A stretch of DNA of 64,000 nucleotides from a virus (taxonomy: Duplodnaviria > Caudoviricetes): positions 1 through 64,000 of the IMG/VR virus record IMGVR_UViG_3300031088_000782; one strand, given 5' to 3'. The notes beneath the pieces were generated by a model. The model ran no database searches, was not told the DNA's origin, and was given only the letters and a program-made list of their open reading frames with translations. Below are positions 22-26,398 of the stretch, piece after piece (the stretch's first letter is position 1; each line of letters opens with the position of its first letter). Made by a program: the position numbers and the translations under genes.

Positions 22-976
22 ATGAGCAACTTGTACCATATAAACAAAGAGACAGGAAGAGTCAACATCTGCCGAGCCACAAAACAAAAATGCCCCTACG
101 GTGGAAAAACCGGACAAGAAAATCATTTCGCAACAAAAGAAGAAGCAAAACAGCATAACGAAAAAATTCTTTCAGAAATTTATTCAAACACAACATCGCT
201 GCGAAAAACCAAAAACTCTAAAAATCAATCAAACGCAAATTTAAACGACAGAAAATACAAAAGAAAAACTGTCCCCACGATGAATCAAGAACAAGCGTCT
301 AAGCTCACAACAGAGATGTATCAAGAATTCGAAAATTTAAAAAAAACAATTGACAAAAGACGAACAAAGAGCACTACACTTCTACTCAGGAAACGGAGCA
401 GAAAAAATTAACAACTTACTCAGAGAAACAGCAACAGAAGAAGAAATGAATAAAATCAGCAAAAAGACCGGATACGAAATAGCAAAAGAAATCACACCAG
501 TATTAGACAACTTAATGAAAGAACACGGAAACGGAGAAAACAAAGAACCCAAAAAACTTTACCGATACATAGAACTACCAGAAAAAACAAAAATTGACCA
601 ATACATTCAAGAAAATTTTGAAAACACTGACGAATATACTGACAAAGCATTCATCAGCACAACAGAAGATCCGGAACACATAGCAGGATTTATTCACGCT
701 TATGGAAAAAAGAAAAAATACGTGCTACTCGAAATAGAAACCAACAAAGGAATCAGCCTGCAAGAAAAACCAGAAGAGATGGCTGGATGGCTAGCAAGCT
801 TCGAAAAGGAAAGACTGCTACCAAGAGACATGAAATTTTCTATCGAATCCATCAATGAAACAGCTATCAAGCCTAACCCAACAAGAGAAACCCTTACTCG
901 CCAATTCACTACCTTTGCAGACCCCAAAATAGAACCAGCACAATTGAGAATGATAACACTAAAAGAAAAAGAATAA
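22..976 (+). pseudogene. ADP-ribosyltransferase (VIP2/C2-like R-S-E clade) with N-terminal H-C-C-H domain, split by a frameshift at the A8 run 339-346
   Basis: RBS GAAGGGA precedes ATG 22. Frame 1 (to 411) and frame 2 (341-976) join as ...EFENLKKQLTKDEQRALHFYSG... if one A is removed from 339-346. ART motifs: KLYR, FISTT, FEKERLLPR (ExE). Confidence 0.75.
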
Positions 977-983
977 TCCTTAG

Positions 984-1012
984 TTGACAAAAATAGTTTA
1001 CTATGGTATACT
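984..1012 (+). promoter_or_regulatory. Consensus housekeeping sigma70/SigA promoter for the restriction endonuclease
   Basis: TTGACA 984-989, 17-nt spacer, TATACT 1007-1012 with extended -10 TG. Confidence 0.8.
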
Positions 1013-1067
1013 TATTTTAAATTGTCGTACTTAACACTCGAATGCGAAGAAAAGGATACAAGTAAAA

Positions 1068-1808
1068 ATGAGTAGCAATATCAATATTTTAAAAGAATCC
1101 ATCAATGATGTTCATATGGAAAATCTCATTTCCGCTATAAAAGAAGGAAAATCGAAATATTTTTCGCATGGAGCAAGAAGCCCCAAAAAGATCGAACCCA
1201 TCCACAAGGCAATAGCTGAAATATTTGATGCAGAAAAGACTTTGACCGTTAAATCAAAAGGAATCGGAGACGATAAAGAGGAAAAAGTTGCCGGAGTCTT
1301 TTATGATAAAGATTGCGACATAACCATAAAGAATACGGAGAACAATAAAACCTCAGTCGTGGAAGTAAAATTTATCACTACAAACTATAAGCAGAACGCT
1401 AATAATTACTTTGAAAATCTTCTGGGAGCAACTGACAATTTACGAAGAAATAACATCAATGTGTCACAAGTTGTCATCCTCCCTAAAACTATTCCTTACC
1501 TAAAACGAGAAGGAATAGTTTCAAAACTAGAGATCATCAACGACAGAGATATTAGCAAATACCGAAAATTGATGGCAAACACAGAATACACATCCTCACC
1601 AAACAACCTTCTTTTCTTACTCATTGACATGTGGGCAGAAGTAAAAATTGGAGATATGCTCAAAAATGCTGTCATCCACAAAGAAAGTAATGTCAATATG
1701 ATAGATGTTATGAATTCAAACTTTAGCGAAGAAAATATTGAATTCATAAAAAATCACAGCAATTACAATGAATTTATTCAAAAAGTAAAAAATGATGTTA
1801 TGGCTTAA
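1068..1808 (+). CDS. Putative type II restriction endonuclease (PD-(D/E)xK)
   Basis: DCDITI...VVEVKF nuclease motif; convergent with and overlapping a DNA methyltransferase. Confidence 0.7.
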   Translation: MSSNINILKESINDVHMENLISAIKEGKSKYFSHGARSPKKIEPIHKAIAEIFDAEKTLTVKSKGIGDDKEEKVAGVFYDKDCDITIKNTENNKTSVVEVKFITTNYKQNANNYFENLLGATDNLRRNNINVSQVVILPKTIPYLKREGIVSKLEIINDRDISKYRKLMANTEYTSSPNNLLFLLIDMWAEVKIGDMLKNAVIHKESNVNMIDVMNSNFSEENIEFIKNHSNYNEFIQKVKNDVMA

Positions 1809-3270
1809 ATTTTTTAATCATACTTGATGATACTGTTTTATAATCTCCACTCAAATCTTTACCAACAATACGGCAATACTTTAAAAAATCTTCACTTTCG
1901 ATAATCTTCTGCAATTCTTCCAAAGAAAGATTATCGGAAAAAAGATTTCTTTCGTTAGCTGTAACAAACAACCCACTATAAATAAGAACATTAGAAGGAA
2001 CAACATATGTTTTAATAGTTTTTTGAGAAGGACTTATAACAGGACTAAACACTATTTTTTCCTTAGAAGTCTCCTGTATAGACTGACTCCTTCCATACCA
2101 AAACCAACTACTGCCTTTATCAAGAGACCTTTCCAACAATTTTTCCTTATTGTTTAGCAAATATTCATAAACAATCGGAGAATTAGCCAGCTCATCTTCA
2201 CTTATACCCCTGAAAGAATCACCAATCTTTTTATAAGGAAAAACAATTTTTTTAGTTATTGCTTCACCCTTATACTTAGACCCTTTAATAATAGGATAAA
2301 CATAATCGTTTTCTCCCAAATCCTCATTATCTATTAAAAAAAACTTATCTCCAAGAGTAGCAATCCCATTTTGAACTTTGCATAACTCAGAAAGACTCTC
2401 TCCGTCTTCTTTAAACAAAAAATTATTCAACAATAATTGATCCTCTTCAGAAGGAAAAGCAAAACTATCATTTTTTGATAAATCTATTTCTGAATAATTG
2501 ATTTTTCTTACATAGTTTTCTTCTAAATCCTTTTTAGCATCAACATACTCCAAAAAATTCGCATTTTCTTTTGACAAATAAGAGATACATGTATATGTTC
2601 CAACCTTATCAAAAACTTTATCAGCGTTGAAATTGACAATTTTATTCAACTGTCCATGATCAATAACATTCTTTCGAAAAGATTTTTGTGAAACATTTCT
2701 TAACCAAGAATTAGGAGTAATATAAGCAAGTCTGCCGTTTTTACTTAACATAGACAAGCCGATTTCAAAAAATATAATATACAAATCCGTACTCCCCTTC
2801 GAATGCGAATATGTCTTTACCTTCTTTCGCATATCAGCAGGCATATCATGAATTCTTATATAAGGAGGATTACCCACGACAAAATCAAACTTATCGAAAA
2901 TTTCAAAATCCAAAGTATCCATATTATAAAAATTCTTCAACTCAGGAGACAAAGAATACTCATCTGCCAGCCAACCCTTCAAACTTTCAACAGTGAAATC
3001 ATAGACATCTTTGTCATACTCAATAGAATAAACATTATCATCAATAATATTTTCGATTTCATTGTTAGATAAATTATTGATCAAAGAACATTCAATCAAC
3101 CTTTTTATTACTTCAAAAAGAAAAACCCCAGTTCCAGAAGAAGGCTCCATAATGCTTTGATGTAGAATAGAGTCATTATCTGAAGTATACCCAATTTCGT
3201 CAAGCATATTTTCAACAATATAATCAGGAGTCCAAACTTGCCCTAATTCTTCTTTACAAACAATTGTCAT
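1798..3270 (-). CDS. N6-adenine DNA methyltransferase (Eco57I/TaqI-like, gamma class)
   Basis: GQVWTP, motif I MEPSSGTGVF, motif IV VGNPPY, TDLYIIFFE, YITPNSW. Start moved to ATG 3270 after an AAAAGG RBS. Confidence 0.9.
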   Translation of the reverse strand: MTIVCKEELGQVWTPDYIVENMLDEIGYTSDNDSILHQSIMEPSSGTGVFLFEVIKRLIECSLINNLSNNEIENIIDDNVYSIEYDKDVYDFTVESLKGWLADEYSLSPELKNFYNMDTLDFEIFDKFDFVVGNPPYIRIHDMPADMRKKVKTYSHSKGSTDLYIIFFEIGLSMLSKNGRLAYITPNSWLRNVSQKSFRKNVIDHGQLNKIVNFNADKVFDKVGTYTCISYLSKENANFLEYVDAKKDLEENYVRKINYSEIDLSKNDSFAFPSEEDQLLLNNFLFKEDGESLSELCKVQNGIATLGDKFFLIDNEDLGENDYVYPIIKGSKYKGEAITKKIVFPYKKIGDSFRGISEDELANSPIVYEYLLNNKEKLLERSLDKGSSWFWYGRSQSIQETSKEKIVFSPVISPSQKTIKTYVVPSNVLIYSGLFVTANERNLFSDNLSLEELQKIIESEDFLKYCRIVGKDLSGDYKTVSSSMIKKFKP

Positions 3271-3325
3271 TATGAAACCTTTTCTTTTTCGCAATTCTCT
3301 ACTGTTTAATTATATCAAATAACAC

Positions 3326-5170
3326 TCAACTCTTCGCTCTCACAAAACGAATCTTTCCAGAATCCCACACCCGATCAAACCCATTTAACTCAGCAAGCTC
3401 CCTTTCAGACAAACCCTCTTCAAAAACCAGAAAAGGATCATTCTTAAACTTTGACAAACGAAAACCGAATTTATGGAAACGCTTATTCCCAATCACATAA
3501 GAATAATCAGGCGGAACAATCCCATCAATATTCCAACCAGTCTTTTCATACAAACCACCATCGCTAAAAGACAAATCAGCAAAAGTTACGAGACGTTCAA
3601 ACTCATAATTATTTTCAAAGAATTTGACAATTTTGCTGTGACCACCAACAACATGAACACAAGTAGCATAACGAGTCAAAGTATAATCACTTTTATTTTT
3701 AACGAAAGCAGCAACAGCAATAAGTTTCTTGCTCAATTTGTCAAATAAACCAAGATAAACAGAAGACCCAACAAACCCCTGAATATGGTAAGAATCCAAA
3801 AAACTTGAAGCTTCAAATTTTTCAATAACCTTCACAAAAGTATTGCGAGCAAAAACACGTTCAGAAGAAACACCTAAAACATGCTTAATATGAGATTTAA
3901 CAATATCTTGTTTATTGTCCCACTCATCCTCCCAAATCTGAAGTAAACGAACATTCTTATTCTTAGCCAATTGGAATTTATCTTTATGAAAATTTCGCCC
4001 CTTGAACTTCTCACTATGCCAATACAATCCATTGAACTCAATTCCAACATTCAAATCAGGAATGAAAACATCAATCTCTTTCCCATTAAGAATCTCACGA
4101 TCATTCTCAATAACTTCAAAACCCAAAGATTTAACAAAATTAGCCAAATCTTTTTCTTTTTTGGAAACGTTTCTGGTTCGACATTTTTTGCAACCCTCCA
4201 ATCCTTGAAGTATTCTAAAAATAGAGTAAGTAAAATATTCAAAATGTTTATTGCATTTTAAAACAGTATCACCTTGAAGACTATTTTTTAGCACAGTTTT
4301 GTCGAATCCATATCTGTTTTCACCATGAACACCTTTAACTCTTTCAATGAATTCCTCTAATGTTGTTGATCTATTTTCTTTATCACAAAGATTACAACCT
4401 GTCTTTCCCATCAATAGGCCATCAAGTGTTTGAGTGAAAAATCCATGTTCAGTAACAGAACATCCAATAGTTTGCTTTTCTCGAATCCCTTTATTCCAAT
4501 CTACTTGTGAAAAATCGAATTTTTTACTATGCACTTTAAAAGATTTTTCAATAATAACTTCTTTCGACATTTTCAAAGTTTTAGAACACTTATAGCATCC
4601 AATCATTTTATTCAAATTGGACCAAGCTTCTTGAATATATTCCACATTGTGAATATTACAAATCAAAACCACCTTAGTGTGAATTCCTTTAATCTCAGAA
4701 ACTTTTGAATAATCAAACCTATCCTCTCCGAAGATATTTTTTGATCTTTTTATAAATTCATCACGATCAATAGGTTTTTGACCATTACAATCAGTGCATC
4801 CATTAAATCCCTTCATAAAAGCCTGGGGGTTTTGAAAAAAGAAAACATCATGTTCAACACATTTAATCTTTACTTTTTCATTCATCTTAGTATAAACGGT
4901 TTCTGAAAAATCAAATTTGTCCTCACCATGAATTTTAATTGATCGTCTGATGAAATCCTCATTTGTCAACCTTTTCCCCCCGCAATCAGGGCATCCATTT
5001 TGAGATTGAAGTATTTTTCCGGGACGCATCGTAAACTCTAAATCATGCTTTTTACATACAACAGTAACAGGAGTGGTCGAATTTTTATAAATAGATTTAC
5101 TGAAATCAAGATCTGGAGACAAAGATTCTGCTCTTTCAACAAACTCTTTTTGAGTCAATTTTTTAGGCAT
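3326..5170 (-). CDS. Homing-endonuclease-like protein: 5 DUF723-like Zn repeats + PD-(D/E)xK/Vsr-like nuclease + C-terminal GNAT-like domain
   Basis: Five ~65-aa repeats (F..R...IHG..FDFS...C..H.....GC..C); EIDVFIPDLNVGIEFNGLYWH; C-terminal YHIQG..VYLGLF..LTRYA..GGHSK. RBS AGGGG before ATG 5170. Confidence 0.75.
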   Translation of the reverse strand: MPKKLTQKEFVERAESLSPDLDFSKSIYKNSTTPVTVVCKKHDLEFTMRPGKILQSQNGCPDCGGKRLTNEDFIRRSIKIHGEDKFDFSETVYTKMNEKVKIKCVEHDVFFFQNPQAFMKGFNGCTDCNGQKPIDRDEFIKRSKNIFGEDRFDYSKVSEIKGIHTKVVLICNIHNVEYIQEAWSNLNKMIGCYKCSKTLKMSKEVIIEKSFKVHSKKFDFSQVDWNKGIREKQTIGCSVTEHGFFTQTLDGLLMGKTGCNLCDKENRSTTLEEFIERVKGVHGENRYGFDKTVLKNSLQGDTVLKCNKHFEYFTYSIFRILQGLEGCKKCRTRNVSKKEKDLANFVKSLGFEVIENDREILNGKEIDVFIPDLNVGIEFNGLYWHSEKFKGRNFHKDKFQLAKNKNVRLLQIWEDEWDNKQDIVKSHIKHVLGVSSERVFARNTFVKVIEKFEASSFLDSYHIQGFVGSSVYLGLFDKLSKKLIAVAAFVKNKSDYTLTRYATCVHVVGGHSKIVKFFENNYEFERLVTFADLSFSDGGLYEKTGWNIDGIVPPDYSYVIGNKRFHKFGFRLSKFKNDPFLVFEEGLSERELAELNGFDRVWDSGKIRFVRAKS

Positions 5171-5254
5171 AATATCCCCTTTTCTTTTAATCTCTATATA
5201 AAATATCTTACCAAAAGTTGCGGAAAAATTTAAAAAATACGAATAAAAGCACAC

Positions 5255-5298
5255 AAAAATACCGTAGATCTTAGATTACTAAAACCTACGGTATTTTT
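5255..5298. terminator. Bidirectional intrinsic terminator downstream of nrdF
   Basis: AAAAATACCGTAG / CTACGGTATTTTT inverted repeat. Confidence 0.7.
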
Positions 5299-5328
5299 AT
5301 CAAAAACTACGAAATTCGTTTTTAATTG

Positions 5329-6333
5329 TCAGAAATCCCAGTCATCATCGTCCATATCCTCCGCTTTACCTACGATATACTGACTACTGGATTGGCTGAA
5401 AAAGTCGTGATTCTCATTAGATGGGTCAAGAGATGCCAAAATCTGCGGAGCAATAGTGGTTTCCTCTTTACCAAAGATTCCTTCAAACCCAAGATTGTTC
5501 AAAGCTTTGTTTGCATTGTATTTAAGGAATTTCTTAACTTCTTCAGTCAATCCCAAATCATCATAAATAGATTCGGTGTAGTGCTCTTCATTTGCGAAAA
5601 GATGATTCAAAAGTTCGATTGTGAAATCATACAATTCTTTTTGGCGTTCAGGTGTTGATTCATTGTAAGCTTTTTGGAATTTATAACCAATGTAATAACC
5701 ATGAATTGACTCGTCACGGACTATTAAGGAAATTATTGATGCTGTATTTGTCAATTTTCCTTTACTTGACCACCAAAGCGGCATGAAGAATCCTGAGTAG
5801 AACAAGAATGATTCAAGAAGGGTTGAAGCAATCTTTCGTTTCTCTGGGTCATCTCCACGGTAATAGTGTAAAACGATAGCTGCTTTCTTTTTCAGAAATT
5901 CGTCTTCTCTTGACCAACGAAACACTTCTTCAATTTCTTTACTTGATAAAAGAGTTGAGAAAATACTTGAATAAGATTTTGCGTGAACAGATTCCATAAA
6001 AGCAATGTTAGTATAGATTGCCTCTTCATGGGGGGTTCTGGCATCGGGAATGAGCGAAATAGCACCAACGCGACTTTGTATGGAATCCAAGAGAGTTAAA
6101 CCAGCAAAAATTTTTGCTGTTGAGTCTTTTTCTTGTTCAGTAAAGGTGTTCCATGAAGAGAGGTCATTACTGATCGGCACCTTAGTGTCAATCCAAAAGT
6201 TCTGCACCAAGCGTTGCCAAATTTCCAAATCTTTTTCATCTTCAATTTTGTTCCAGTTAATTGCTTCTTCAAGTTTAACATCGTCAATATTGAAATCGTC
6301 AAGTGTTGTGGGAGTTTCATTGTTGTCTGTCAT
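5329..6333 (-). CDS. nrdF: Class Ib ribonucleotide reductase beta subunit
   Basis: AINWN, LTLLD, MESVHAKSYS, LLESFLFYSGF, RDESIHG and C-terminal DDDDWDF; all metal ligands and the radical Tyr are present. Confidence 0.97.
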   Translation of the reverse strand: MTDNNETPTTLDDFNIDDVKLEEAINWNKIEDEKDLEIWQRLVQNFWIDTKVPISNDLSSWNTFTEQEKDSTAKIFAGLTLLDSIQSRVGAISLIPDARTPHEEAIYTNIAFMESVHAKSYSSIFSTLLSSKEIEEVFRWSREDEFLKKKAAIVLHYYRGDDPEKRKIASTLLESFLFYSGFFMPLWWSSKGKLTNTASIISLIVRDESIHGYYIGYKFQKAYNESTPERQKELYDFTIELLNHLFANEEHYTESIYDDLGLTEEVKKFLKYNANKALNNLGFEGIFGKEETTIAPQILASLDPSNENHDFFSQSSSQYIVGKAEDMDDDDWDF

Positions 6334-6447
6334 CAGTTCTCTTTCCTTTTTCTATTTTTCATTACTTGTTTAATATCTTAACAAATTTTGTTTTGCCGCA
6401 ATATCATTATTCGATTATTTTATCAAACTTAGCAAAATATTCTATTC

Positions 6448-8106
6448 TCAATCGTCATCATCTAAATCGAATGCGCTTCTTTCTATGCCAAGGTCTTCAC
6501 CAGAATTTATTTCATTTTTATCCGATGTTTTTGGGGTGTTGACTGTTTTGGATTTTGACGAATTTTGACTTTCTTCAATAATGTTTATAAATTCTTCTGG
6601 AAGGTCTACTTCTGGTAAGGAGAGTGAAGTATCATTTTCTTCTAAAATTATTTCATCAAGATCAAAAGCACTTTCTTCTACATCAAGGTCTTCATCATCT
6701 TCTTTTATCAATTGTTCAAGGTCTTTGCCTTTGATTTCGTCTTCATCAGGGAGGGATAGAGCTTCTTCATCTTCATTGTTTTTGTGAGAAAGAATCTGCT
6801 CTCTTTGTTTGGCTATTTCGGCCATGCTCAATTTTTTGGGTTCTTTCTTCTCATCAAGTTTTTTTGCAACATTTGCCGAAGCTACTCCGCTGGATATAGC
6901 ATTTGAACTGCTTTCAACAGCGTTTTCATTAATGTCTGGGAGAGGCTGTTCAGTTTCTTCGCTTTTATGAAGAAATTTCTTGTAGGTGATAATACCTTTT
7001 GCTGATTTATTGCCGAATTCCCATCCTTGTTTTTTCAGAAAATTTTCGATGCTGTTCTGTGTTCCATTGTTATTTCTGAATTTGACGCAAATTTCTTTCT
7101 TTTTCATCATTTCAGCAATTCTTCTGTAATCTTCGAGAATATATTTCAGAATTTTATGTCCATCTGTTTCTTGTCGATGGACTTTGATGTCATGTAATTC
7201 ATCAAAGTCTTTGTCAATTGTGTAGAAGGCTATCACCTTTCCGTTTTTGAGCACGACTCTGTAATTGGTGATTCCTTTTGCTTCGTTGCTTTTCATAAAC
7301 ATTTCGAAATCTTTTTCAGTAAGGTTGGATTGTTCGTTTGTTCGTGAAGTTGTGGTGTAGATTTCTTTTATTTTTTCGTAGTCTGAGGGGTGAAAATTTG
7401 AAAATTTTATCGAACTATTGATGATATAATCTTTTGGTAATAGTACAAATACTTGGAAAAGAGACAATATTGCAAACAGTGTGTTACAGAACAAATTGAT
7501 TGCTATTCCCATGAAAGACACAACAAGAGCTAAACCTATCAAGAGTATGATTACTGTGAAAGCTGAGTCAATTATTGTTCCTTCTTTCATAGTTGCGATT
7601 GGAAAAGATTGAACAATTGATTCTTTAATTTGGATTAATATTTCATAAATCCTTCCAGTGACAAACAGCTCTTTTACGATAACGAAAACAAAGGTTGATT
7701 GAATAGCAGCATGAGATAAGATAACTATGAAATTCATCAATGGTTTCTGCATTTGCTTTCCATAATTTGCACAGTATTCCATAATTTTATTATAAATAAA
7801 TTTAAGAATTATGGGAGTGGTGAAAAACATGAGGATGAATGTTATTGTCTCATATGCTGTTGGTTGAAAGAATGATTGGATGATCTCTGCTTCAGGGGAA
7901 CTTTTTCGTAAATAGGCAATGAGAAAGAAAAGCAGTGAGGCGGCTGTTGTAAGAATTAATGAGACTATCCAGAAGAAGGACTCTTTTCTTGTGTATTTAA
8001 TGAGTTTTCTGTTAGGGGAGTAGTCTTTTTGGGGTCTGCCTATTTTCCCTCTGTTGTCTTCTGTGACAAATAATTTCTTTTTTATATCTTGTATTTTGGT
8101 TTCCAT
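6448..8106 (-). CDS. Membrane protein with possible GNAT-like cytoplasmic domain and acidic tail
   Basis: About 4 hydrophobic segments; RVVLKNGKVIAFYTI...ENFLKKQGWEF pattern; D/E-rich C-terminus. Confidence 0.5.
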   Translation of the reverse strand: METKIQDIKKKLFVTEDNRGKIGRPQKDYSPNRKLIKYTRKESFFWIVSLILTTAASLLFFLIAYLRKSSPEAEIIQSFFQPTAYETITFILMFFTTPIILKFIYNKIMEYCANYGKQMQKPLMNFIVILSHAAIQSTFVFVIVKELFVTGRIYEILIQIKESIVQSFPIATMKEGTIIDSAFTVIILLIGLALVVSFMGIAINLFCNTLFAILSLFQVFVLLPKDYIINSSIKFSNFHPSDYEKIKEIYTTTSRTNEQSNLTEKDFEMFMKSNEAKGITNYRVVLKNGKVIAFYTIDKDFDELHDIKVHRQETDGHKILKYILEDYRRIAEMMKKKEICVKFRNNNGTQNSIENFLKKQGWEFGNKSAKGIITYKKFLHKSEETEQPLPDINENAVESSSNAISSGVASANVAKKLDEKKEPKKLSMAEIAKQREQILSHKNNEDEEALSLPDEDEIKGKDLEQLIKEDDEDLDVEESAFDLDEIILEENDTSLSLPEVDLPEEFINIIEESQNSSKSKTVNTPKTSDKNEINSGEDLGIERSAFDLDDDD

Positions 8107-8141
8107 TGAGCATCCTTAAAAAGTTCTATTGTATATATCTT

Positions 8142-8573
8142 TTATGGGCGTTTTTTGATGCCTTTTTCTAATTTTATAGCGACTTTATACATATTGTCGT
8201 TAAATTCTTTTTCTGTGTCTGTTTTATTTATCATGTAGTTCATTTCGGCATTTTTTTCAGAATTTTCTCTGTCTGTCACTCTTATAACAGATTCGGGGTA
8301 TGATAGGTTATTTCTTATATCTTCAATCATTCCGGTTAGGGGTTTTGATTCGAAAATTGTTTGCGCTTCATGATCGGTTAGTTTGATGATCATTTCATGT
8401 TTATATTCATTAACAGGGTTGGAGAAAGTCCAGCTCAATGCTGCTTCATTATCTTTCATAGGAACCAGAAATTGTGTAATTTCTCCATCCCAGTGATTGA
8501 GGACAGCTATTTCTTTTTGGCTATTCTTTTCGAATTCATCTAACCATTCGGGTTTTATAAATTTTTCATGCAT
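8142..8573 (-). CDS. Hypothetical protein
   Basis: 143-aa ORF co-oriented with neighbours. Confidence 0.65.
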   Translation of the reverse strand: MHEKFIKPEWLDEFEKNSQKEIAVLNHWDGEITQFLVPMKDNEAALSWTFSNPVNEYKHEMIIKLTDHEAQTIFESKPLTGMIEDIRNNLSYPESVIRVTDRENSEKNAEMNYMINKTDTEKEFNDNMYKVAIKLEKGIKKRP

Positions 8574-14968: not shown

Positions 14969-14981
14969 TAGATGTTTAATT

Positions 14982-17601: not shown

Positions 17602-17614
17602 TCTTATAAAAATT

Positions 17615-17803: not shown

Positions 17804-18622
17804 GTGAAGTATAAAAAAACTATCTTTTTGTCTAATCTTGAGGGGCAATATAAATTGTGGAAGTCAGAGATTGCGCCTGCCTGCAATGGAGCGGATGAGG
17901 TTATCCAATTGGGAAATGTTATTGGTTGCAATAATCTTGTAAAAGATAAAGAAAAAATTGGGCCAAATGAGGCTGTTTTGAAATATTTGATTCTTTATCG
18001 ATCTACACAGGAGAATTGGACACAAATAGCAGGAACTAACGAAATGGCAGCTTTGAATTTTCCTGAAGAATGGACAAATGCTGTGAGTAGGCAAATTTTG
18101 AGAAATGCATGGTTCAATAAAAATCCTTCTATGGTTACAGCAGCAGTTAACAAAGAGAGGTTGATCACACATGGCGGTTTGACTTATGGGGAATGGCTGA
18201 GTATAGGCAGTCCTCAATCGCCACAGGAGGCTGCTGACAGACTTAATGAAAAATATTATGGGAGTATTTATCAGGGAGCATGTTTTAAGTTGGGAAATCC
18301 GCCTAATTATGCGGCTAACCCTATTTGGGCGGATCCTGTTATGGAAACTTATCCCTCTTGGATTACTGCTCCTGTGGCGATGCCTTTTGATCAGATTCAT
18401 GGTTCGAACAATCTTAATGCAAAAGAGAGTCGGGGCTTGATATCCGATAAACAATCTCCGTTATCTTTTTTTGATAAAGTGAACTTTAACTCCTATGGTT
18501 CACGAGTGTTTATAAAAGAAATGCAGATACTTGGTGTAAACCTTGAATTGCCACAGAAACTTATTTCGTCAATTCCTCAACCGCAATCTCTTTATATAGA
18601 AAAAATGTTGGTTCAAGAGTAA
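17804..18622 (+). CDS. Degenerate calcineurin-like metallophosphoesterase-fold protein
   Basis: Motif order is kept but altered: FLSNLEG (for DxHG), QLGNVIG (for GDxxD), AGTNE (for GNHE), ITHGG, QIHG. Confidence 0.55.
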   Translation: MKYKKTIFLSNLEGQYKLWKSEIAPACNGADEVIQLGNVIGCNNLVKDKEKIGPNEAVLKYLILYRSTQENWTQIAGTNEMAALNFPEEWTNAVSRQILRNAWFNKNPSMVTAAVNKERLITHGGLTYGEWLSIGSPQSPQEAADRLNEKYYGSIYQGACFKLGNPPNYAANPIWADPVMETYPSWITAPVAMPFDQIHGSNNLNAKESRGLISDKQSPLSFFDKVNFNSYGSRVFIKEMQILGVNLELPQKLISSIPQPQSLYIEKMLVQE

Positions 18623-18817
18623 TCGAAAAAATAATCATAGTGAGAGTGATGACATTTTACTATACAAAAACTTACACGGTATGGACCTAGAACTTATGAA
18701 GGGGTTCTTAGGGGAGACAGAAGATAGAAACTATTATTGCAGAAGAAATATTTTTAAAAAAATAATTGGTAGAATCAGAAAGCAATAATGAAATAAGATG
18801 AGGGGAGTGCGAGAACT

Positions 18818-20764
18818 ATGTTTGATGCTGACATTGATCTGTTCGATGATGTTGATCAGTCTTCGTCAAACCGAAAATTCTTGCAGAAGACTCTTGGTGA
18901 CAATGCCCAATACCTGAAATTGAAGAATAAATCTAAAACTCCCGATGGCTCTTTTGCAAAGGGGCGCAGGAACAGATTAAAAAACATTCCAAAAACAGGT
19001 AATTATGGCATTATTCCTCATAAGAAATTGTTTATTCTTGATTTTGATTGCCATAATGATGGTTTTTCTACTATTGATGAACAGATAGATTTCTTTAGTG
19101 AGTTTTTTGAAGTTAACTTACGTAAGAGTTTTGCTGTTGTCACACCTACTGGCGGTATCCATGTTTATCTGATGTTCCCGGAGGATATTTCTGAAACTTC
19201 AAAAAATGATTTTCCCAAGGCTTCTCTACGTGGTTATTCAAAAGCTTTTTCTGAAATTGTTGGTAGAGAAATAGTACTGGACGCTGACATTCGCAGTGGT
19301 TTAGTGAATGGTTATGTAGTTGGAGTTGAGAGCCTTTCTTCTCGTGTTAATGCTATTCATGAAAAATATTGGATTGCGGATCATACTGTGGGTTTTTCTT
19401 CTGAGGGATTTGACATTCTTTCTGTTCCACAGGAATCAATGGACAAGTTTAAGAGAGTCGTAGAATTCCGAAATAGCACCGAAAAATCTCTGAATGATAA
19501 GTTGGGAGAGATTGATGGTGAAAACCCGTTAAAGGCTATTTTTGAGTCTCTTGATAGTGCTTCAGGGGAAAAGACAAACATCAAGCCGCCAACTGAAATT
19601 ATTTATCGTTTGAAAAAATCAATCAAAACAAAAAATATAGTTTCTTATCATGCTAAAAGAGCCTTCGTCAAATCGGCTTTGCATTGCTGCTATGATGATT
19701 ACGCTATTGCTATTGCTTGCATTGAGATGGGAATTGATAAAGATTCATATAATGATAAATCTATCGGGTTCCGTTCTCTTATTACTGACATCAAAAGATT
19801 TACACCAGAGAAAAGATATCATGGATTTTACTGTTATCAGGGGCGTCAGAACCTCAGAATAGCGAAGAAACAAGAGTTCAAAGAACAGTATTCTGGCGTT
19901 GAATTTAATGTAGATGAATTCAAGCAGAAGATGAAACAAAAAATTTCACAACGTTCCAATGCTGGTGCTTCATCTTTTCGCGTTCTTAATCCGCGTGTTA
20001 TTGACATTGGAAAAGTATCTTCGGCTATTCTTATGGAAAAGAAAAAAGACAATCCTCCGCAACAGTATTTTGATGCTATGGCAATAGTCGATTATTTCAT
20101 TCAACCTTTGTCTAATGTCGGAACTTCTCGAATTCTTTTAGCTAAGACCGCTATATGTGAAAGGCTAGCTATTTCTCCGTCTCGCACTACTCAAGCTTTG
20201 CGATTACTGCGAGAAAATAAGGTCATTCGAATTGAGGAAAAACAAAAGAGTGGCATGGCTCCCACGTATTCTGTTTCTGAATCTTTCACTCAATTCTATT
20301 TGACGAAGGCTTTGCGTTTGGCTTGGGGAAGATTGAACAAAGGAAAGCCAAGAGAAGAGAGTGACTCCATCTATTTTGATAGATTGTCTGGCGTTTTTCG
20401 CAAGGTCTTTACTGATGAGGCTGTTGAGACTGTTTCTCCTGTTGATGATGTATTGAGAAAAATTTCCTTGTCAGTTCCAGCTGTTTCTTTTAAGTTCTAT
20501 GCTGGTGGAGCAGCAGTATCTTATTTAAAGTCTGAGGCTGAGAGGTACGATTTTTCTCCGGTTGTTCTTGATGACATTGTTGTTGATGAAAATACTGGTG
20601 AAATTGTTGAGGATCTTGATTTCAATGGTGAATTTTCTGTTGAAAGAATGTTGAATGATTCTGAATATTTAATAACTAATGAAAATAATTTAATTACACA
20701 AGAAAATAATGCTGTAGATAATATAGAGGGGCAGAATAATCATTGTTTGATAGATAGCAGTTAA
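18818..20764 (+). CDS. Bifunctional primase-polymerase (Prim-pol/AEP) with C-terminal wHTH; candidate replication initiator
   Basis: GNYGI...FILDFDCH, TPTGGIHVY, DIRS...GYVVG; C-terminal AICERLAISPSRTTQALRLL. Confidence 0.75.
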   Translation: MFDADIDLFDDVDQSSSNRKFLQKTLGDNAQYLKLKNKSKTPDGSFAKGRRNRLKNIPKTGNYGIIPHKKLFILDFDCHNDGFSTIDEQIDFFSEFFEVNLRKSFAVVTPTGGIHVYLMFPEDISETSKNDFPKASLRGYSKAFSEIVGREIVLDADIRSGLVNGYVVGVESLSSRVNAIHEKYWIADHTVGFSSEGFDILSVPQESMDKFKRVVEFRNSTEKSLNDKLGEIDGENPLKAIFESLDSASGEKTNIKPPTEIIYRLKKSIKTKNIVSYHAKRAFVKSALHCCYDDYAIAIACIEMGIDKDSYNDKSIGFRSLITDIKRFTPEKRYHGFYCYQGRQNLRIAKKQEFKEQYSGVEFNVDEFKQKMKQKISQRSNAGASSFRVLNPRVIDIGKVSSAILMEKKKDNPPQQYFDAMAIVDYFIQPLSNVGTSRILLAKTAICERLAISPSRTTQALRLLRENKVIRIEEKQKSGMAPTYSVSESFTQFYLTKALRLAWGRLNKGKPREESDSIYFDRLSGVFRKVFTDEAVETVSPVDDVLRKISLSVPAVSFKFYAGGAAVSYLKSEAERYDFSPVVLDDIVVDENTGEIVEDLDFNGEFSVERMLNDSEYLITNENNLITQENNAVDNIEGQNNHCLIDSS

Positions 20765-20781
20765 TTATCACTTATTTTGAC

Positions 20782-20810
20782 TTGCTTCTCTGCGATTTAT
20801 GGTGTAGAAT
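20782..20810 (+). promoter_or_regulatory. Probable SigA-type promoter
   Basis: TTGCTT-17 nt-TAGAAT upstream of the rIIA-like gene. Confidence 0.55.
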
Positions 20811-20848
20811 GTAGTTATTGAACATTTACACGATGATTGGAGAAAATA

Positions 20849-23389
20849 ATGACATTTCAGGGATTGTCTAAGGGCGATAAGAACTACTCAAGCGTTACTG
20901 ACCTTATGGTTGGACGTTCTTCTGGTCGAACTATCAAGATGAGAATGAATCTTGAAGATCAGGGTGCTCTTATGAACAAACTGACTGACATGTACGATAA
21001 GCCTATTACTGCAAGTGTGCGAGAGGTTCTGTCTAACGCTATTGATGCAACTGTATCTCTGATGAGTAAGGGTCATAAAGTAAATCCTGTTGAAGTCAGT
21101 ATGCCTTCTGTAATGTCTCCTGAATTTGTTGTAACTGATCATGGCATTGGAATGTCTGAAGATGACATTGAAAATCATTTTGCTGTTTTTGGTGGTTCTG
21201 AAAAGAAATCAGACTTTCAGCAAATTGGAGCTTATGGGCTTGGTGCCAAATCTCCGCTTGCTTATTGTGATCAGTTTTCTTTCGAAACAACTAAGGATGG
21301 AGTGACTTGTAAGGTTCTCGTTATTCGTTCTGAAAGAGGCCCGGAAACTCAAATTTTGTCTGTTGAAAATACTGGTAACGAGTCTGGAACTACTGTGCGA
21401 ATTCCTCTCAATTCTTCTGATGGAAGCGATCAAGCTATTGATATTTCCAGCTTCAATCAGGCTATTCAGTCATACAAAGATTTCTCTTTTGATGTTCCCG
21501 TTGTCATCAATGGTGTTGAATATTTTGGAAATCCTAACTATATTGAGCTTGGCACTGTTGAGATTGAATCCGACTCTAACACTCAGGGGCGTTTTTGGAT
21601 TACACACGAATGTCTTCTCAAAGTTTTGGGTGAAACTGGATATTATTCTCGTTTCAGTAACATTCATTCTTATGTCCTTTCAGGATATAGATACGATTCT
21701 GTTATGAGTAGTCCTTATGTTGAATCTAAAGATGTTATTGTCGAACTGAAGCCTGGTGTCGTTGATTTTATTTCGTCTCGTGATGGAATTACAAAAAACA
21801 ACCGTTCCATTGCTCTTGACAATCACATTAACGATGTTCTTAACAATAAAAAAGAATTCATTCTTAATGGAACGATTTCTGGAATTAAAGCTGGAAAATT
21901 TAGTAAGTATGAGACTTACAAGATTTTTGAAGCTCTGAATCCACAGATCTCTTCTGACGAAGATAAAGTGACTATTGAAAATGAAATTTTTGATTTTTCA
22001 GATTTCGATTCACCTGATGGATACAACTTTCTTAAAGAAAATGCGAAATTCTCTCATGAAAGTATTCATTCTGTTCTAAGGGTCAATGAAAGCTCTACTT
22101 ACTCGAATAGTCGCAATATTCTTACGCCTGTCAAGTCGGGAAATTTTTCAACATATTTCAAAGCTCCTTACAACTATTCAGGAAAAGTCAATGACCTTAT
22201 CAATGATGTTATAACAAACCTTAATCTTTCTGATAGAGAAGATAACAGAAGTGTGAGATTAGTTGATTGTGCAAGGGTTGTAAATGAATCATCTGGTGAA
22301 ATCTATTTTGTTTCTGGAATGAATAATGAAAAAGACATTAAAGCAGTCATTCGTCAACGTAAAGAAATTGCTTCATCTAGAGAATCTACTCTTATCATCA
22401 TGACACAAGATGATAAATTTTCAGACGAAGAGATTGAGGCTTTTCTTAACAAAGTTGATTCTGACATTCATTCCAAGATTAATTGGGTTGATGTTGAATT
22501 TTTTAAGAAGATTGCAAAAGAGAAGCGAAACAATTCTGTTTCTGTTTCGAAGGATTCAACTCCTTATGCAAGGATCTGGGCTTTTTCAGATGGTTTCGAT
22601 TCATCGGAAGAGATTGTTAATGGAGAAGTAAAAGATTCTTCTAAGAAAAACAATTCTTACCTTGGAAAAACAGATCTTAATACTGTTTATGGAGAAAATG
22701 CACTGATTATCGCTTCAGAGGGCGGAAGTAGTCGTAATGTTGTTTTCGACCTTTTGAATGGATATCAGCACATTAAGGGATTTGATGCTCTGAAAAATAG
22801 ACCTGTTTATGTTGTTGCTCAACTTTTGAAGAATTCGGTTCTGTCTCTCGTGAATTCGGGAGAAGAAGTTATTCGTGACAAATCTATCAGACACGCAAGC
22901 AAAGATGCCGAAGAGAAGCTTAATTCTCTTCCAACTTATTCTCGCTCTGTTGAGGATGATAGGCTTAACCTTGCCTCGGATGAAAGCTTGATCGCTAAAT
23001 ATGTGCAGTCAAAGCTGGGCGGATACTGCGATACAGTCAACCAAAGATTGCAGTCACTTGCGTCTTTTGGCAGTGATTCAAATTCTGTTGAAAATATTGA
23101 CAAAATGAAAAACTTTATTGACAGTGTTGATTACAAGTCTAATCTTTTGCAAGTTCCCGAAGTTTCTGTTGAATATATTGCGACTAGAGGCGGACTTGAT
23201 GGATTGATCAGAAAAGTTGAAATTCTTGAAAAGGTAAGCATGATGGGACGATACAGTTATGATCAAAAAATCAAAGAGTTTGTTTCTAGCATGGCTCTTC
23301 TGCTTAACATGAAAGAAGGAGAATCAGCTATCCCTGATTATTTGAAGCAATCTCTGGTGAAGTTCATTAATGATGAGCTTGCCTTGTGA
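20849..23389 (+). CDS. GHKL (HSP90-like) ATPase, T4 rIIA-like
   Basis: VREVLSNAIDA, DHGIGMS, FGGSEK, IGAYGLGAKSPLAY, GTTVRIP. Confidence 0.8.
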   Translation: MTFQGLSKGDKNYSSVTDLMVGRSSGRTIKMRMNLEDQGALMNKLTDMYDKPITASVREVLSNAIDATVSLMSKGHKVNPVEVSMPSVMSPEFVVTDHGIGMSEDDIENHFAVFGGSEKKSDFQQIGAYGLGAKSPLAYCDQFSFETTKDGVTCKVLVIRSERGPETQILSVENTGNESGTTVRIPLNSSDGSDQAIDISSFNQAIQSYKDFSFDVPVVINGVEYFGNPNYIELGTVEIESDSNTQGRFWITHECLLKVLGETGYYSRFSNIHSYVLSGYRYDSVMSSPYVESKDVIVELKPGVVDFISSRDGITKNNRSIALDNHINDVLNNKKEFILNGTISGIKAGKFSKYETYKIFEALNPQISSDEDKVTIENEIFDFSDFDSPDGYNFLKENAKFSHESIHSVLRVNESSTYSNSRNILTPVKSGNFSTYFKAPYNYSGKVNDLINDVITNLNLSDREDNRSVRLVDCARVVNESSGEIYFVSGMNNEKDIKAVIRQRKEIASSRESTLIIMTQDDKFSDEEIEAFLNKVDSDIHSKINWVDVEFFKKIAKEKRNNSVSVSKDSTPYARIWAFSDGFDSSEEIVNGEVKDSSKKNNSYLGKTDLNTVYGENALIIASEGGSSRNVVFDLLNGYQHIKGFDALKNRPVYVVAQLLKNSVLSLVNSGEEVIRDKSIRHASKDAEEKLNSLPTYSRSVEDDRLNLASDESLIAKYVQSKLGGYCDTVNQRLQSLASFGSDSNSVENIDKMKNFIDSVDYKSNLLQVPEVSVEYIATRGGLDGLIRKVEILEKVSMMGRYSYDQKIKEFVSSMALLLNMKEGESAIPDYLKQSLVKFINDELAL

Positions 23390-23449
23390 AAGATTTGTAA
23401 AATTTTTTTTAAAATGAAAAAAACAATAGGTGAATGGAAGGATTATATT

Positions 23450-23680
23450 ATGAATGATTCAATGAGTGTTATCAAGAAAGCTCTTTCTGAGAAGAGTGCA
23501 GTATCTTTCAATTATGAAAAAGCGGATGGGGATAGTTCTTTTCGAAATATTGTTCCTGAAGATGTGATTATTGCTTCTGACTCTAATCCGCTTGTTGTGG
23601 GGGTTGATCAAGATGTGCAGGGCTATCGTAGGTTTAATCTTTCACGAATGACTGATGTGAAGCTGTCTGTTGGTGAATGA
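23450..23680 (+). CDS. Stand-alone WYL-like domain protein
   Basis: ALSEKSAVSFNY...SFRNIVP...YRRFNLSRM. Confidence 0.65.
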   Translation: MNDSMSVIKKALSEKSAVSFNYEKADGDSSFRNIVPEDVIIASDSNPLVVGVDQDVQGYRRFNLSRMTDVKLSVGE

Positions 23681-23716
23681 TTGACAAACTTTTGTTTATG
23701 GTTTAAGTAGTAAGAT

Positions 23717-23765
23717 AATAAGGTTATCAGTGAGTTTCTTAATGTCTCTTACTGATAACCTTATT
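23717..23765 (+). terminator. Hairpin/terminator
   Basis: AATAAGGTTATCAGT / ACTGATAACCTTATT followed by a T-rich tract. Confidence 0.7.
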
Positions 23766-23891
23766 GTTTTTTTTGTAAAGATATTGAAAATGGTTTTTCA
23801 AAAGAATTTTGGTGATGATTTTTTGTTAAAATCTAAATGAAGTAGATAAATAGTTTTTCATATAGAGAAATTTTGAAAGGTAGTAAAAATT

Positions 23892-24986
23892 ATGACAGTT
23901 ATTGAGCCTTTGGTTCCTAAGTTTGACAATATTGAGGTAAATAAAGTTGATTTGCCTTACAGAAACGAGTCTTATCTTCGTTTTTCTTATTCAGATCCTA
24001 TGTTGGAGGGATATGAAGTTACAGTTATTGCTGATTCTGTTCCAGTAGGCAGTGAATTTAAGAATGGTGATGAAGAGGGGGAGCGTTTATTAACAATTTC
24101 AGCAAGATTCCCACGTTGCATCCTTTCGGAAGTAAACACTCACAGGGTTTTTTCAAGAAATTCAGCTTCTTCTCGTGCTCGTTCAGTTAAAGCCACTATT
24201 GGTGACATTATGCGTAAGCCTTATATTCCTTTGTTCACTAAAAACAAAAAAGGTATGAGCGGAGAATTTTTAACTGCTGCTGAAAGAGAATTAGCTGTCA
24301 AGGCTTGGCTTTTGGGGCGAGACTCGGCTGTTGTTTCTGAACTTCGGCTTTTATTGGGTGATTTACTTACTCCAAGCGGAACTATCACTGAAATTGCATC
24401 AAATTATGCATCTCACATTGACCGCTATTACAAGGAAGTTTATGAAGCTGAGATTATGCCTGTTGAAGCTATTTCTGTTCATAAACAAAATGCTAATCGA
24501 GTAATTGAGCCTTATATGTGGCATGAAGCTATTGTCACTTCGTCTTATTGGGAAAATTTTGTTGAATTGCGAACAGACTTGGAAGCTGCTCAACCTGAAA
24601 TTGTTGCTTTGTGTCGTTTGATTGAAAAAGCTTTGGAAGTTTCTCGGCCTTCGCAAACTTGGTTGCACCTTCCATTTATCGAAGATTCCGAAAAACCTGA
24701 ATCCTTTGATAATTTTGCGAATATTCGTGATTTGTTGCTTCTTTCTGCAACTGAGTCAGCACAGGTTTCTTATCGTGACAAATCAAGAGCAGATAAGTCG
24801 ACTGCGACTACTCGCTTAGGTGAGCGGTTACTGAAGATGCGCCATTTGAGTCCTTTTGAGCACGTTGCTTTCTCTTCGGATGCCTACCACAATAATTCTG
24901 AGGAGATCTTACCGCGAGGAAATGTCTTGCGGAGTAATTTGGATGATAACTGGGTTCAGCTTCGTCCAATTTTGACAGCTATGTGA
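23892..24986 (+). CDS. thyX: Flavin-dependent thymidylate synthase (ThyX/Thy1), phage type
   Basis: FPRCILSEVNTHRVFSRNSASSRA, HKQNANRVIEP, HLSPFEH. Confidence 0.85.
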   Translation: MTVIEPLVPKFDNIEVNKVDLPYRNESYLRFSYSDPMLEGYEVTVIADSVPVGSEFKNGDEEGERLLTISARFPRCILSEVNTHRVFSRNSASSRARSVKATIGDIMRKPYIPLFTKNKKGMSGEFLTAAERELAVKAWLLGRDSAVVSELRLLLGDLLTPSGTITEIASNYASHIDRYYKEVYEAEIMPVEAISVHKQNANRVIEPYMWHEAIVTSSYWENFVELRTDLEAAQPEIVALCRLIEKALEVSRPSQTWLHLPFIEDSEKPESFDNFANIRDLLLLSATESAQVSYRDKSRADKSTATTRLGERLLKMRHLSPFEHVAFSSDAYHNNSEEILPRGNVLRSNLDDNWVQLRPILTAM

Positions 24987-25001
24987 AAACTGTCAAACAT
25001 G

Positions 25002-25033
25002 GAGGGGTAGAGAAAAATCATTCTCTACCCCTC
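25002..25033 (+). terminator. Intrinsic terminator
   Basis: GAGGGGTAGAGAA / TTCTCTACCCCTC. Confidence 0.7.
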
Positions 25034-25091
25034 TTTCGTGGATATTTTTCTATGAATACCTATTAATATTAATGCAAAGGTTTGATAAAGA

Positions 25092-25718
25092 ATGAGTGAA
25101 TTGCTTGAAAAGTCCCCTGTGAGACGTTTTTGGAGTAAAGACGTGATTCTGTTCTCTACTATGCTCCTATCGGCTCTATCATGCCTTGTAGCATCTCTTG
25201 TGTTGTCGATTGATGCTGTCAAGCTAGCTTCTGACCCCACCGCGAATCTCTCCTGTGATATCAACGCAATAGTAAGCTGTGGAACTGTTGCCTTATCAGA
25301 TCAAGCTCAGATTTTCGGATTTCCTAATTCTTTTCTGGGACTTATCTGTGAACCTATTGTCATTATGATTGCTGTTGCTGGCTTATCAGGCGTAAAGTTT
25401 CCAAGATGGATGCTCACAGCTGCTCAAAGTGTTTATTTCATCGGTTTCGTCTTTGCATTGTGGCTGTTCTATCAATCTGCTTTTGTTATTGAAGCTTTCT
25501 GTCCTTGGTGCTTATTAGTGACTGTTGGGACAACTTTAACCTTCTTCACACTGTTGAGATATAACATTATTCATGACAGAATTTTCCTTCCTAAAAGATT
25601 GTCAAATTTTGCTAAAACTGCTGTAAGCTTGAGGATAGATAGCGGGTTGGCTGTTATTGTTTTGATGGTTTTTGCTTTCGTTATATTCTACAATTATGGA
25701 TTCTCAATGTTTGGCTAG
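25092..25718 (+). CDS. Vitamin K epoxide reductase (VKOR) family membrane protein
   Basis: SCDINAIVSCGTV..S.QA.IFGFPN and CPWC redox motif; several TM segments. Confidence 0.9.
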   Translation: MSELLEKSPVRRFWSKDVILFSTMLLSALSCLVASLVLSIDAVKLASDPTANLSCDINAIVSCGTVALSDQAQIFGFPNSFLGLICEPIVIMIAVAGLSGVKFPRWMLTAAQSVYFIGFVFALWLFYQSAFVIEAFCPWCLLVTVGTTLTFFTLLRYNIIHDRIFLPKRLSNFAKTAVSLRIDSGLAVIVLMVFAFVIFYNYGFSMFG

Positions 25719-25807
25719 AATTTTAAAATATGTTTTTATCAAACTGTTTTTGATCTGTTTTAGAAAAGTTCATAACTAAACCTAACGAACGATAAGGTAG
25801 GATGAAC

Positions 25808-26398
25808 ATGGCGAAAACAAAGTTTCACGTAAACCCTGAAACGGGTGAGTCCGGAGAATGCAATGCATCTGTTCGTGCTTGCATTTACGGTAATAGTAAG
25901 GGCGACTATCATTATGCTACCAAAGAAGAAGCTGAGAAAGCTGGACAGAATATTCTTGCTTCAAAATATGGGACTTTTAGTAAAAAGAAAAAATCTAACA
26001 AAACTTTAAAAGCTGTTTCATCTTCTGCCGTTTCTTCGGAAAAGGTTTCTTCAAATAAATCGAAGGCAGCTAAATTTCGATCTCAAATCGAAGACATGAA
26101 TCAAGAAGAAATTCGCCAATTCGCTGACATGTCTCAATCTAATTATAATGCTATTCATAAAATTGCTGAAGATAAAATTAATGAGGATAATGCTGTTTTG
26201 TCAAGACTCGGAGAGTTGTCCGAAAAGAATGGTGCACTTATTGCCGAAAACCGTGAGATAATTATGCGAGATTACAGTATAAATCATAAATCAACTTCTG
26301 AAATTGTCAAAGGATTGGCTAACAGCAAAAACTTTTCTCCATCTAACTCTATCCTTGATCATATAAGAGATGAATATGTTAAAAATTGTTTCAAATGA
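25808..26398 (+). CDS. Protein with the same N-terminal H-C-C-H domain as the ART at 22-976
   Basis: FHVNPETGESGECNASVRACIYG...HYATKEEA. Confidence 0.8.
   Translation: MAKTKFHVNPETGESGECNASVRACIYGNSKGDYHYATKEEAEKAGQNILASKYGTFSKKKKSNKTLKAVSSSAVSSEKVSSNKSKAAKFRSQIEDMNQEEIRQFADMSQSNYNAIHKIAEDKINEDNAVLSRLGELSEKNGALIAENREIIMRDYSINHKSTSEIVKGLANSKNFSPSNSILDHIRDEYVKNCFK

Follow-up and report, generated by a model that had tools for sequence, protein, structure and literature searches.

The ADP-ribosyltransferase (ART) Alt of bacteriophage T4 is packaged, and the capsid-targeting sequence (CTS) of T4 is a short, unfolded and cleaved peptide that needs the prohead. The known signals of type IV secretion systems (T4SS) are C-terminal or internal, and we know of none that is a folded N-terminal zinc domain. 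Polyvalent proteins have been proposed to be delivered together with DNA (Iyer, Burroughs, Anand, de Souza and Aravind 2017; PMC5512222). Here, we analyse a stretch of 64,000 nucleotides, the window, which is positions 1 to 64,000 of the IMG/VR record IMGVR_UViG_3300031088_000782. Two of its genes, at 22-976 and 25808-26398, start with the same small domain, here called the HCCH tag after its conserved His and Cys residues, and judged from the sequences both are members of one large, undescribed family. We tentatively suggest that the tag could be a portable docking module, carried by a co-regulated set of effectors that share a common intracellular partner.

Two genes with the same N-terminal domain

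The two proteins align with 21 of 51 residues identical (41%, BLASTP E-value 2e-11), and the match is confined to residues 5-55 and 8-57. Both follow the consensus M-x-K-[YF]-H-[IV]-N-x-E-T-G-x4-C-x-A-x4-5-C-...-H-[YF]-x-T-K-E-E-A, and both N-termini are polar, without a hydrophobic leader. After the tag, a basic Ser/Lys/Asn-rich stretch leads into mutually unrelated sequence, i.e., the cargo. The initial annotation had described a shared N-terminal module followed by a basic Ser/Lys-rich linker and unrelated C-termini, with an ART of the ExE type in the first protein, and all of this is borne out. The first cargo matches PF03496 (ADPrib_exo_Tox) with an E-value of 1.3e-10 (41.4 bits, cut-off 23.4) and has the R-S-ExE motifs YR, STT and EKE. 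Its best match among solved structures is weak (Vip2, E-value 0.0017). The second gene is the following:

25808-26398, plus strand: tagged protein of 196 amino acids; HCCH tag at residues 5-55, Ser/Lys-rich linker at about 58-95, C-terminal domain without a known family

The ATG at 25808 is preceded by AAGGTAGG, and an alternative ATG is at 25802. The cargo of this gene has no family match, and its relatives are all near-identical.

The tag defines a large family

The window belongs to a 309,534-bp record that is a "provirus" cut-out of IMG/VR, so that position 1 is an artificial border. A hidden Markov model (HMM) of the tag was built from the copies in this genome. It finds ten clear copies and a weak one, in a CCA-type nucleotidyltransferase, each at the start of an open reading frame (ORF):

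Genome positions 22, 25808, 93253, 164505, 167218, 168131, 196588 (minus strand), 198907, 233764, 250316 and 281586: HCCH tag genes found with the HMM

H6, C17, A19, C24 and A42 are invariant in the eleven copies, while the second His is present in ten of them. Among 1.84 billion proteins, the profile matches 5,059 cluster representatives at an E-value of 1e-3 or lower and 719 at 1e-10 or lower. Such an HMM search of the replicon and of related elements had been proposed in the initial annotation, which also considered that the two window copies might be the only ones; with eleven copies in the record and 5,059 metagenomic representatives, they are not.

In 146 of the best 149 representatives (98%), the tag starts at most 12 residues from the start of the protein. 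Eight of the 149 carry two or three tags, and two have only a C-terminal tag, located behind a Ser-rich linker. The H, C, C, H and A positions are invariant across 145-148 distant representatives. Variation is seen in the loop that connects the second Cys to the second His, and the ligand spacing across the family is H-x10-C-x6-C-x3-13-H. The linker is enriched in Ser, Thr, Lys and Pro, with a mean net charge of about +1 versus -0.6 for the tag.

Pfam, NCBIfam and PHROGs contain no model for the tag (the window proteins have no hmmscan match to Ada_Zn_binding at an E-value below 1), and a search of the profile against the PDB sequences gives nothing below an E-value of 0.5. Using tblastn, two tag variants had no match in 50,697 phage and 72,556 plasmid records, even at an E-value of 1, and the profile matched 0 of 401 genomes of one phylum. 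A DNA pattern for YHINPETG-x4-C-x-A has two matches in 185,579 species genomes versus 81 stretches in JGI metagenomes. The two species-genome matches of this strict pattern are a metagenome-assembled genome (MAG) with 19 tags on small contigs and a truncated relic. On a scaffold of Clostridium sp. CAG:967, a gut MAG (L013:5038-5202), an ORF of 55 amino acids holds the first half of the tag only (FHVNPETG...C.AS..AC); this ORF is either a relic or a fragment that arose by chance. No description of the HCCH domain came up in full-text searches of the literature.

A common upstream box

A short sequence element is found upstream of many tag genes. In the window it is represented by:

25759-25767, plus strand: TTTAGAAAA, a box of the TTAGA[GAT]A family, 49 nt before the ATG at 25808

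In the genome, T[TA]TAGAAA[AG] is located 30-63 nt upstream of seven of the ten evaluable tag genes (the region upstream of the first one is not evaluable, as the record starts at the artificial cut), and there are only 35 9-mers of this kind in the 309 kb. In seven sources of 31-64% GC, 17 of 36 tag genes have the core TTAGA[GAT]A in front of them, where the expectation by chance is 0.005-0.05 per gene. A metagenome sample of 80 loci (537 kb, GC 24-62%) was also examined. Here, a box at a distance of 10-85 nt upstream is seen for 100 of 181 tag genes, whereas among the other ORFs the count is 15 of 426 (Fisher P 3e-47, odds ratio 34). The distance between box and start is mostly 24-50 nt, with a peak at about 31 nt, and the base 5' of the box is never C. 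Further upstream, nothing is conserved. Tag genes without a box often lie directly behind another tag gene.

The box and the tag are clearly coupled. Through the shared box, the tag would then mark a co-regulated gene set, where the regulation itself is read from the sequence. Related boxes also occur outside the tag genes: ATAGAAAAG at 42693 lies 61 nt upstream of a TadE-like gene, and a variant precedes the gene of a 1214-residue protein in the transfer block of the element (see below). Further, the untagged genes starting at 86429, 96589, 236695, 267836 and 278006 have a TTAGA[GAT]A box 19-59 nt upstream and encode a hydrophobic, membrane-type N-terminus. The regulon may include membrane proteins, or these boxes may be due to chance in AT-rich DNA.

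The tag-ART gene of the window is split over two frames

The span 22-976 is 955 nt long, which is not a multiple of three, and contains no single ORF. It consists of:

22-411, plus strand: ORF in frame 1, 129 amino acids; HCCH tag at about nt 34-190, basic Ser/Lys/Asn-rich linker and the first helices of the N-terminal region of the ART; stop at 409-411
339-346, plus strand: A8 homopolymer with a one-base frame offset
341-976 (from 341/350 onward), plus strand: frame-2 part with the ADP-ribosyltransferase domain PF03496; stop at 974-976

An intact tag-ART paralogue of 306 amino acids is encoded at 167218-168135 of the genome. Both halves of the window copy are collinear with it and join at its residues 93-95. 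Residues 5-110 of the first half match residues 4-95 of the paralogue (38% identity, E-value 2e-16), and residues 2-189 of the second half match 93-273 (42% identity, E-value 1e-47); the R-S-ExE motifs are kept in the paralogue. A structure prediction of the paralogue made without an alignment has a pLDDT of 41 and is unusable.

When public contigs are aligned to positions 1-1100, the A8 run is repeated in an independent assembly of the source run. Three other runs provide contigs with identities of about 97.5%, 88-90% and 87%; these are one base shorter at 339/341, and their tag-ART frame is continuous. It can therefore be concluded from the alignments that the fused architecture is ancestral and that the window copy was recently broken by the homopolymer. 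The initial annotation had treated 22-976 as one tag-ART protein, which holds for the ancestral architecture but not for the window copy. A full-length product of this copy would be made by slippage only, if at all.

One head and many cargos

The Pfam cargos among 148 representatives are ART (four proteins), 2H-SAK (two), RNase_T (two), YqaJ, Zeta toxin/AAA_33, Fic and LPD29, while most have none; a CCA-type nucleotidyltransferase, DEDD nucleases and PNK-like kinases are also joined to the tag. In Pfam scans, the window proteins and these representatives each have one head and at most one recognisable type of cargo. The 80 metagenome loci contain 184 tag ORFs, about one per 3 kb. Tag genes often lie back to back, with nine in 21 kb or five in 13 kb. 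The 158 tagged metagenomic proteins with a cargo of at least 50 residues fall into 107 cargo clusters, of which 79 are singletons.

Cargos are also exchanged at a fixed location. Both in the record and in a relative, IMGVR_UViG_3300012642_000011 (437.6 kb), a tag gene lies between ThyX and an RNase T gene. The two products share the tag only (27% identity) and differ in length, with a 109-residue ORF in the relative versus 196 residues here. As the same slot holds the tag with a different cargo, the slot appears to be old and the cargo replaceable.

This architecture could suggest a classical polymorphic toxin system for interbacterial competition, in which an N-terminal trafficking domain and a C-terminal toxin are followed by an immunity gene. 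The single head with many tails, and the ART, Fic and Zeta cargos, agree with such a system. However, no immunity-type gene was found downstream of the window tag genes or of the intact ART. The latter is directly followed by the tagged CCA enzyme, and the broken copy by this gene pair:

1068-1808, plus strand: protein of 246 amino acids without a family, with its own sigma-70-like site at 984-1012
1798-3294, minus strand: methylase of the Eco57I/N6_Mtase type, in convergent overlap with 1068-1808

The site at 984-1012 is near-consensus (TTGACA-17-TATACT with TG), and the two genes probably form a restriction-modification pair; from its own promoter-like site and the pairing with the methylase, the gene at 1068-1808 is not a candidate for immunity. 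Moreover, no signal peptide or known secretion domain is present in the tagged proteins, tag genes are found back to back, and the cargos include the CCA-adding enzyme and repair-type nucleases. We therefore consider it highly improbable that this is a classical polymorphic toxin system, mainly as the tagged genes have no immunity genes behind them. The polymorphic effector architecture of the initial annotation is retained in the sense of one head, 107 cargo clusters and a cargo swap at a syntenic slot, but not as a toxin system in the strict sense, which would have downstream immunity genes.

The untagged genes that recur in the tag loci are of the backbone type and encode the small subunit of ribonucleotide reductase (RNR), a dNMP kinase/NT5C fusion, a T2SSE-type ATPase and DUF4379 zinc-finger proteins. 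In the genome, an array of 67 tRNAs with many duplicates is located at 145134-160000, and the tagged CCA-type enzyme lies about 8 kb downstream. One tRNA of the array, at 152966-153037 with the anticodon TTA, is called a stop suppressor by ARAGORN.

Predicted fold of the tag

An AlphaFold2 (AF2) model of the tag, made from 145 sequences, has a mean pLDDT of 75.6. It contains a beta-hairpin with strands at residues 6-8 and 15-17, a short strand or bridge at 35-36 and a helix at 39-54, and is disordered beyond about residue 60. The four His/Cys are placed at the strand ends and in the loop. Given their invariance, the four residues most likely hold a zinc ion within this domain of 50-55 residues.

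A search of the PDB folds with the model gave nothing significant (best Foldseek E-value 2.9, VIA Z at most 2.8). The zinc domain of Ada (N-Ada) is a weak but recurrent match (TM 0.38-0.40, Foldseek E-value 0.5-3), and the hybrid-binding domain (HBD) of RNase H1 is among the neighbours of ESM Atlas models (TM 0.48-0.55). In profile-profile tests, using N-Ada and HBD alignments built from genomes, hhalign gives P 0.03 and a probability of 1.6% for N-Ada, and P 0.044 over 14 columns for the HBD, with three sequences only. By this test, homology to either domain is not significant.

Both Ada_Zn_binding (PF02805) and the RNase H1 HBD (Cauli_VI, PF01693) resemble the tag in being a small beta-beta(-beta)-alpha module with an [FY]-x-[ST]-x-x-E-A motif at the transition from the last strand to the helix, and N-Ada also has two Cys in the loop behind the hairpin. 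However, the ligands are HCCH in the tag versus C4 in N-Ada and none in the HBD, there is no HMM match, and the TM is 0.4-0.5. In our models, the likeness to both is thus weak, and it would be an analogy at the fold level only. A known housekeeping zinc domain, which the initial annotation had considered as the identity of the tag, is found neither by a sequence match nor by more than a weak fold likeness to N-Ada.

The tag as a docking domain

Two or three tags in eight of the 149 best representatives, and a C-terminal tag only in two, indicate that the tag is a self-contained domain rather than a terminal signal. Together with nearly cargo-less versions of the tag proteins, the CCA enzyme as a cargo of the housekeeping type and the lack of immunity genes, these tandem and C-terminal tags are the reasons to favour a docking domain over an export signal or a polymorphic toxin. 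The weak but repeated fold likeness to N-Ada and to the RNase H1 HBD, two modules that bind nucleic acids, would also agree with docking.

We suggest that such a system would act as follows; (i) the box about 25-50 nt upstream of the start would switch the tag genes on together, (ii) a flexible Ser/Thr/Lys-rich linker would join the head to many unrelated enzymes and (iii) through the head, the enzymes of these giant, conjugation-type elements, which would modify the host or counteract its defence, would all be tied to the same partner. Docking would take place inside the cell that carries the element, or that has just received it. We infer that the partner would be a nucleic-acid or nucleoprotein hub, e.g., the incoming DNA or the transcription or translation machinery.

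Several observations weigh against this proposal. No shared partner was found. The zinc site is read from the four invariant residues, and the CCA-type nucleotidyltransferase is the sole copy in the genome without the second His. The matches to the tag fold are not significant by any of the methods (Foldseek E-values above 0.2, VIA Z at most 2.8, hhalign P 0.03-0.04). For a nucleic-acid binder, the tag has an unusual charge, being neutral to slightly acidic. Finally, a mere binding domain does not need to be N-terminal in 98% of the proteins, and a free N-terminus or a 5' cassette may matter.

Alternatively, the tag could be a regulatory handle that sets the amount or the activity of the enzymes, as a degron, a zinc or redox switch or a client site of a chaperone or peptidase such as MoxR-VWA(DUF2201_N). 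A transient burst of potentially harmful enzymes would then end together. The near-obligatory N-terminal position, the co-regulation by one box and harmful cargos (ART, Fic, Zeta) without antidotes are consistent with this. So is the pair of a MoxR AAA+ ATPase and DUF2201_N that adjoins tag genes both in the genome (283163-285908) and in a contig of 64% GC. However, MoxR-VWA was not found in the relative with the query used, no protease site or processing was seen, and the proposal is pure inference; we consider it quite unlikely.

The MoxR-type pair itself deserves a description. The AAA+ ATPase and the DUF2201_N protein (metallopeptidase-like/VWA) are encoded directly downstream of a tag gene in the genome (L018:2182-4912), and the same arrangement is seen in the metagenome contig (L017:16267-18992), with 45% and 33% identity. 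MoxR-VWA was considered as a universal partner of the tag and was rejected, since the query used does not find it in IMGVR_UViG_3300012642_000011.

The carrier element and the delivery alternative

Transfer genes are found in the window at 27-64 kb:

34346-36781, plus strand: type IV coupling protein with three N-terminal transmembrane helices, a Walker A motif and a very acidic C-terminal tail
36843-38780, plus strand: TcpC-family conjugation protein
42754-43329, plus strand: TadE-like pilin-type protein

The window also encodes a NikA-like protein, RNR, ThyX, NucS, a primase and VKOR. The relative is collinear with the window from 17.7 to 52 kb (30-54% protein identity), shares the coupling protein, TcpC, the NikA-like protein and TadE, and has about 13 distinct tag genes (21 matches, several of them mirrored).

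The main rival of docking is the delivery proposed in the initial annotation: the tag would be a signal read by the conjugation machine of the element, with its coupling protein, T4SS and Tad-type pilus, and the enzymes would enter the recipient together with the DNA. This would be the counterpart of polyvalent proteins with one enzyme per handle. The presence of the transfer genes in both elements is in line with it, and so are the box variants in front of the TadE-like gene and of the 1214-residue protein in the transfer block, as well as the strict N-terminal position of the tag. The lack of immunity genes is expected of host-modifying rather than killing enzymes. Further, the cargo set overlaps with that of polyvalent proteins, for which co-delivery with DNA is proposed in PMC5512222.

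The charges give a less clear picture: the linkers in this genome are basic, versus a strongly acidic tail of the coupling protein, but across the family the basic linker is a weak trend, with 36% at +3 or more. A predicted complex of tag and linker (residues 1-95) with the coupling protein (130-811) has a score of 0.00 and a partner pLDDT of 46, and is uninformative. Against a delivery signal, no tag gene is located in the conserved transfer block, and tandem tags, C-terminal tags and nearly cargo-less tag proteins fit a signal poorly. The T4SS signals that we are aware of are, moreover, C-terminal or internal, and no positional, sequence or structural link was found between the tag and the T4SS/Tad genes. 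Delivery is thus somewhat unlikely in our judgement. A bolder version combines the two observations of tag and box: the head and the TTAGAnA box would define the effector regulon of a large uncultivated lineage of conjugation-type elements of 0.3-0.7 Mb, and among translocation signals the head would be the first that is a folded N-terminal zinc domain, with which a T4SS of the Gram-positive type would load dozens of interchangeable enzymes into recipients with the DNA. We regard this version as unlikely.

IMG/VR classes the record as viral, the ESM Atlas gives the label Uroviricota to clusters of tag proteins, and the gene content (RNR, ThyX, primase, 67 tRNAs) is phage-like. The tag could then be a signal for packaging into the capsid of a huge phage, similar to the CTS of T4 on Alt, itself a packaged ART, and on internal proteins. 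However, five virion families (the terminase families Terminase_6N, Terminase_6C and TerL_ATPase, the HK97 Phage_capsid and Phage_portal; PF03237, PF17289, PF03354, PF05065 and PF04860) have no match in the record or in the relative, where control genomes gave matches and the sensitivity for divergent virion proteins, including capsids, is limited. Conjugation genes are present instead, and the recurrent neighbours in the 537 kb of tag loci include no virion gene. Capsid packaging is therefore very unlikely, and both it and the regulatory handle rank below delivery. The docking module remains the reading that we prefer.

The element itself is probably larger than the record. Tag-bearing JGI contigs of 673,773 to 727,571 bp have several tag matches each (the GC of tag-bearing contigs is 24-64%), and the longest contig in the protein cluster of the 25808-26398 product is 681,645 bp. 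From these lengths, the 309-kb record was probably cut out of a replicon or genome of much greater size. When the neighbouring VKOR gene was used as a synteny anchor in IMG/VR, no relatives were found.

In IMGVR_UViG_3300012642_000011, the two ends mirror each other in their matches to the tag and to the coupling protein, over at least 107 kb (e.g., 107525 and 329897). This "inverted terminal repeat" of more than 100 kb may have arisen by fold-back during assembly, or it may be a true giant palindrome. Inside the transfer block, a protein with a GmrSD_C-type nuclease domain (40985-41788) and a PIN-PhoH fusion (44154-45581) are both kept in the relative. At 28028-29779, directly upstream of the DnaG-type primase, a protein of 583 amino acids has a weak N-terminal match to Mom (PF25680, E-value 5.8e-6, just below the cut-off).

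Comparison with known systems

A single domain of about 55 residues without a database entry thus heads thousands of proteins in some of the largest metagenomic mobile elements. The head and the box are constant enough to serve as a key in searches for the effectors of these elements. Most of the cargo, with 79 singletons among 158 proteins and mostly without a Pfam family, would be new enzymology, probably directed against host defence, RNA or tRNA, or used in protein modification. The one partner of the head would explain how the elements deploy their whole effector set, and if this partner is the transfer machine, the head would represent a novel type of secretion signal and also a portable tag for delivery.

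The first cargo is related to the R-S-ExE ADP-ribosyltransferases of the C3/Vip2 type (PF03496) by its Pfam match and its R, S-T-T and E-x-E motifs. However, it is very distant from the characterised members, it is fused to the HCCH tag, and its frame is broken here.

In the T4 CTS on Alt and IPI-III, and in MuF-fused effectors, a shared N-terminal element is likewise found on an ART and on other effectors of a mobile genome. The tag differs from the CTS in being a predicted folded His/Cys domain of about 55 residues, in genomes where no capsid, portal or terminase family was found.

The polyvalent proteins (PMC5512222) belong to the same kind of element and have similar cargos (ART, 2H-SAK, LPD29, Zeta/kinase and nucleases), with a presumed early role in establishment or counter-defence. 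A term search of that paper did not find the HCCH domain. A polyvalent protein joins 2-15 domains in a single chain, and a zincin peptidase is often among them, whereas here the enzymes are encoded by separate genes with the same head and box.

With polymorphic toxin systems (LXG/T7SS, Rhs, CDI) the family shares a conserved N-terminal module and swappable C-termini, including the replacement of a cargo at a syntenic position. However, it has no known secretion domain, no immunity genes and many non-toxic cargos, and its members form a dispersed, co-regulated gene set on a mobile element.

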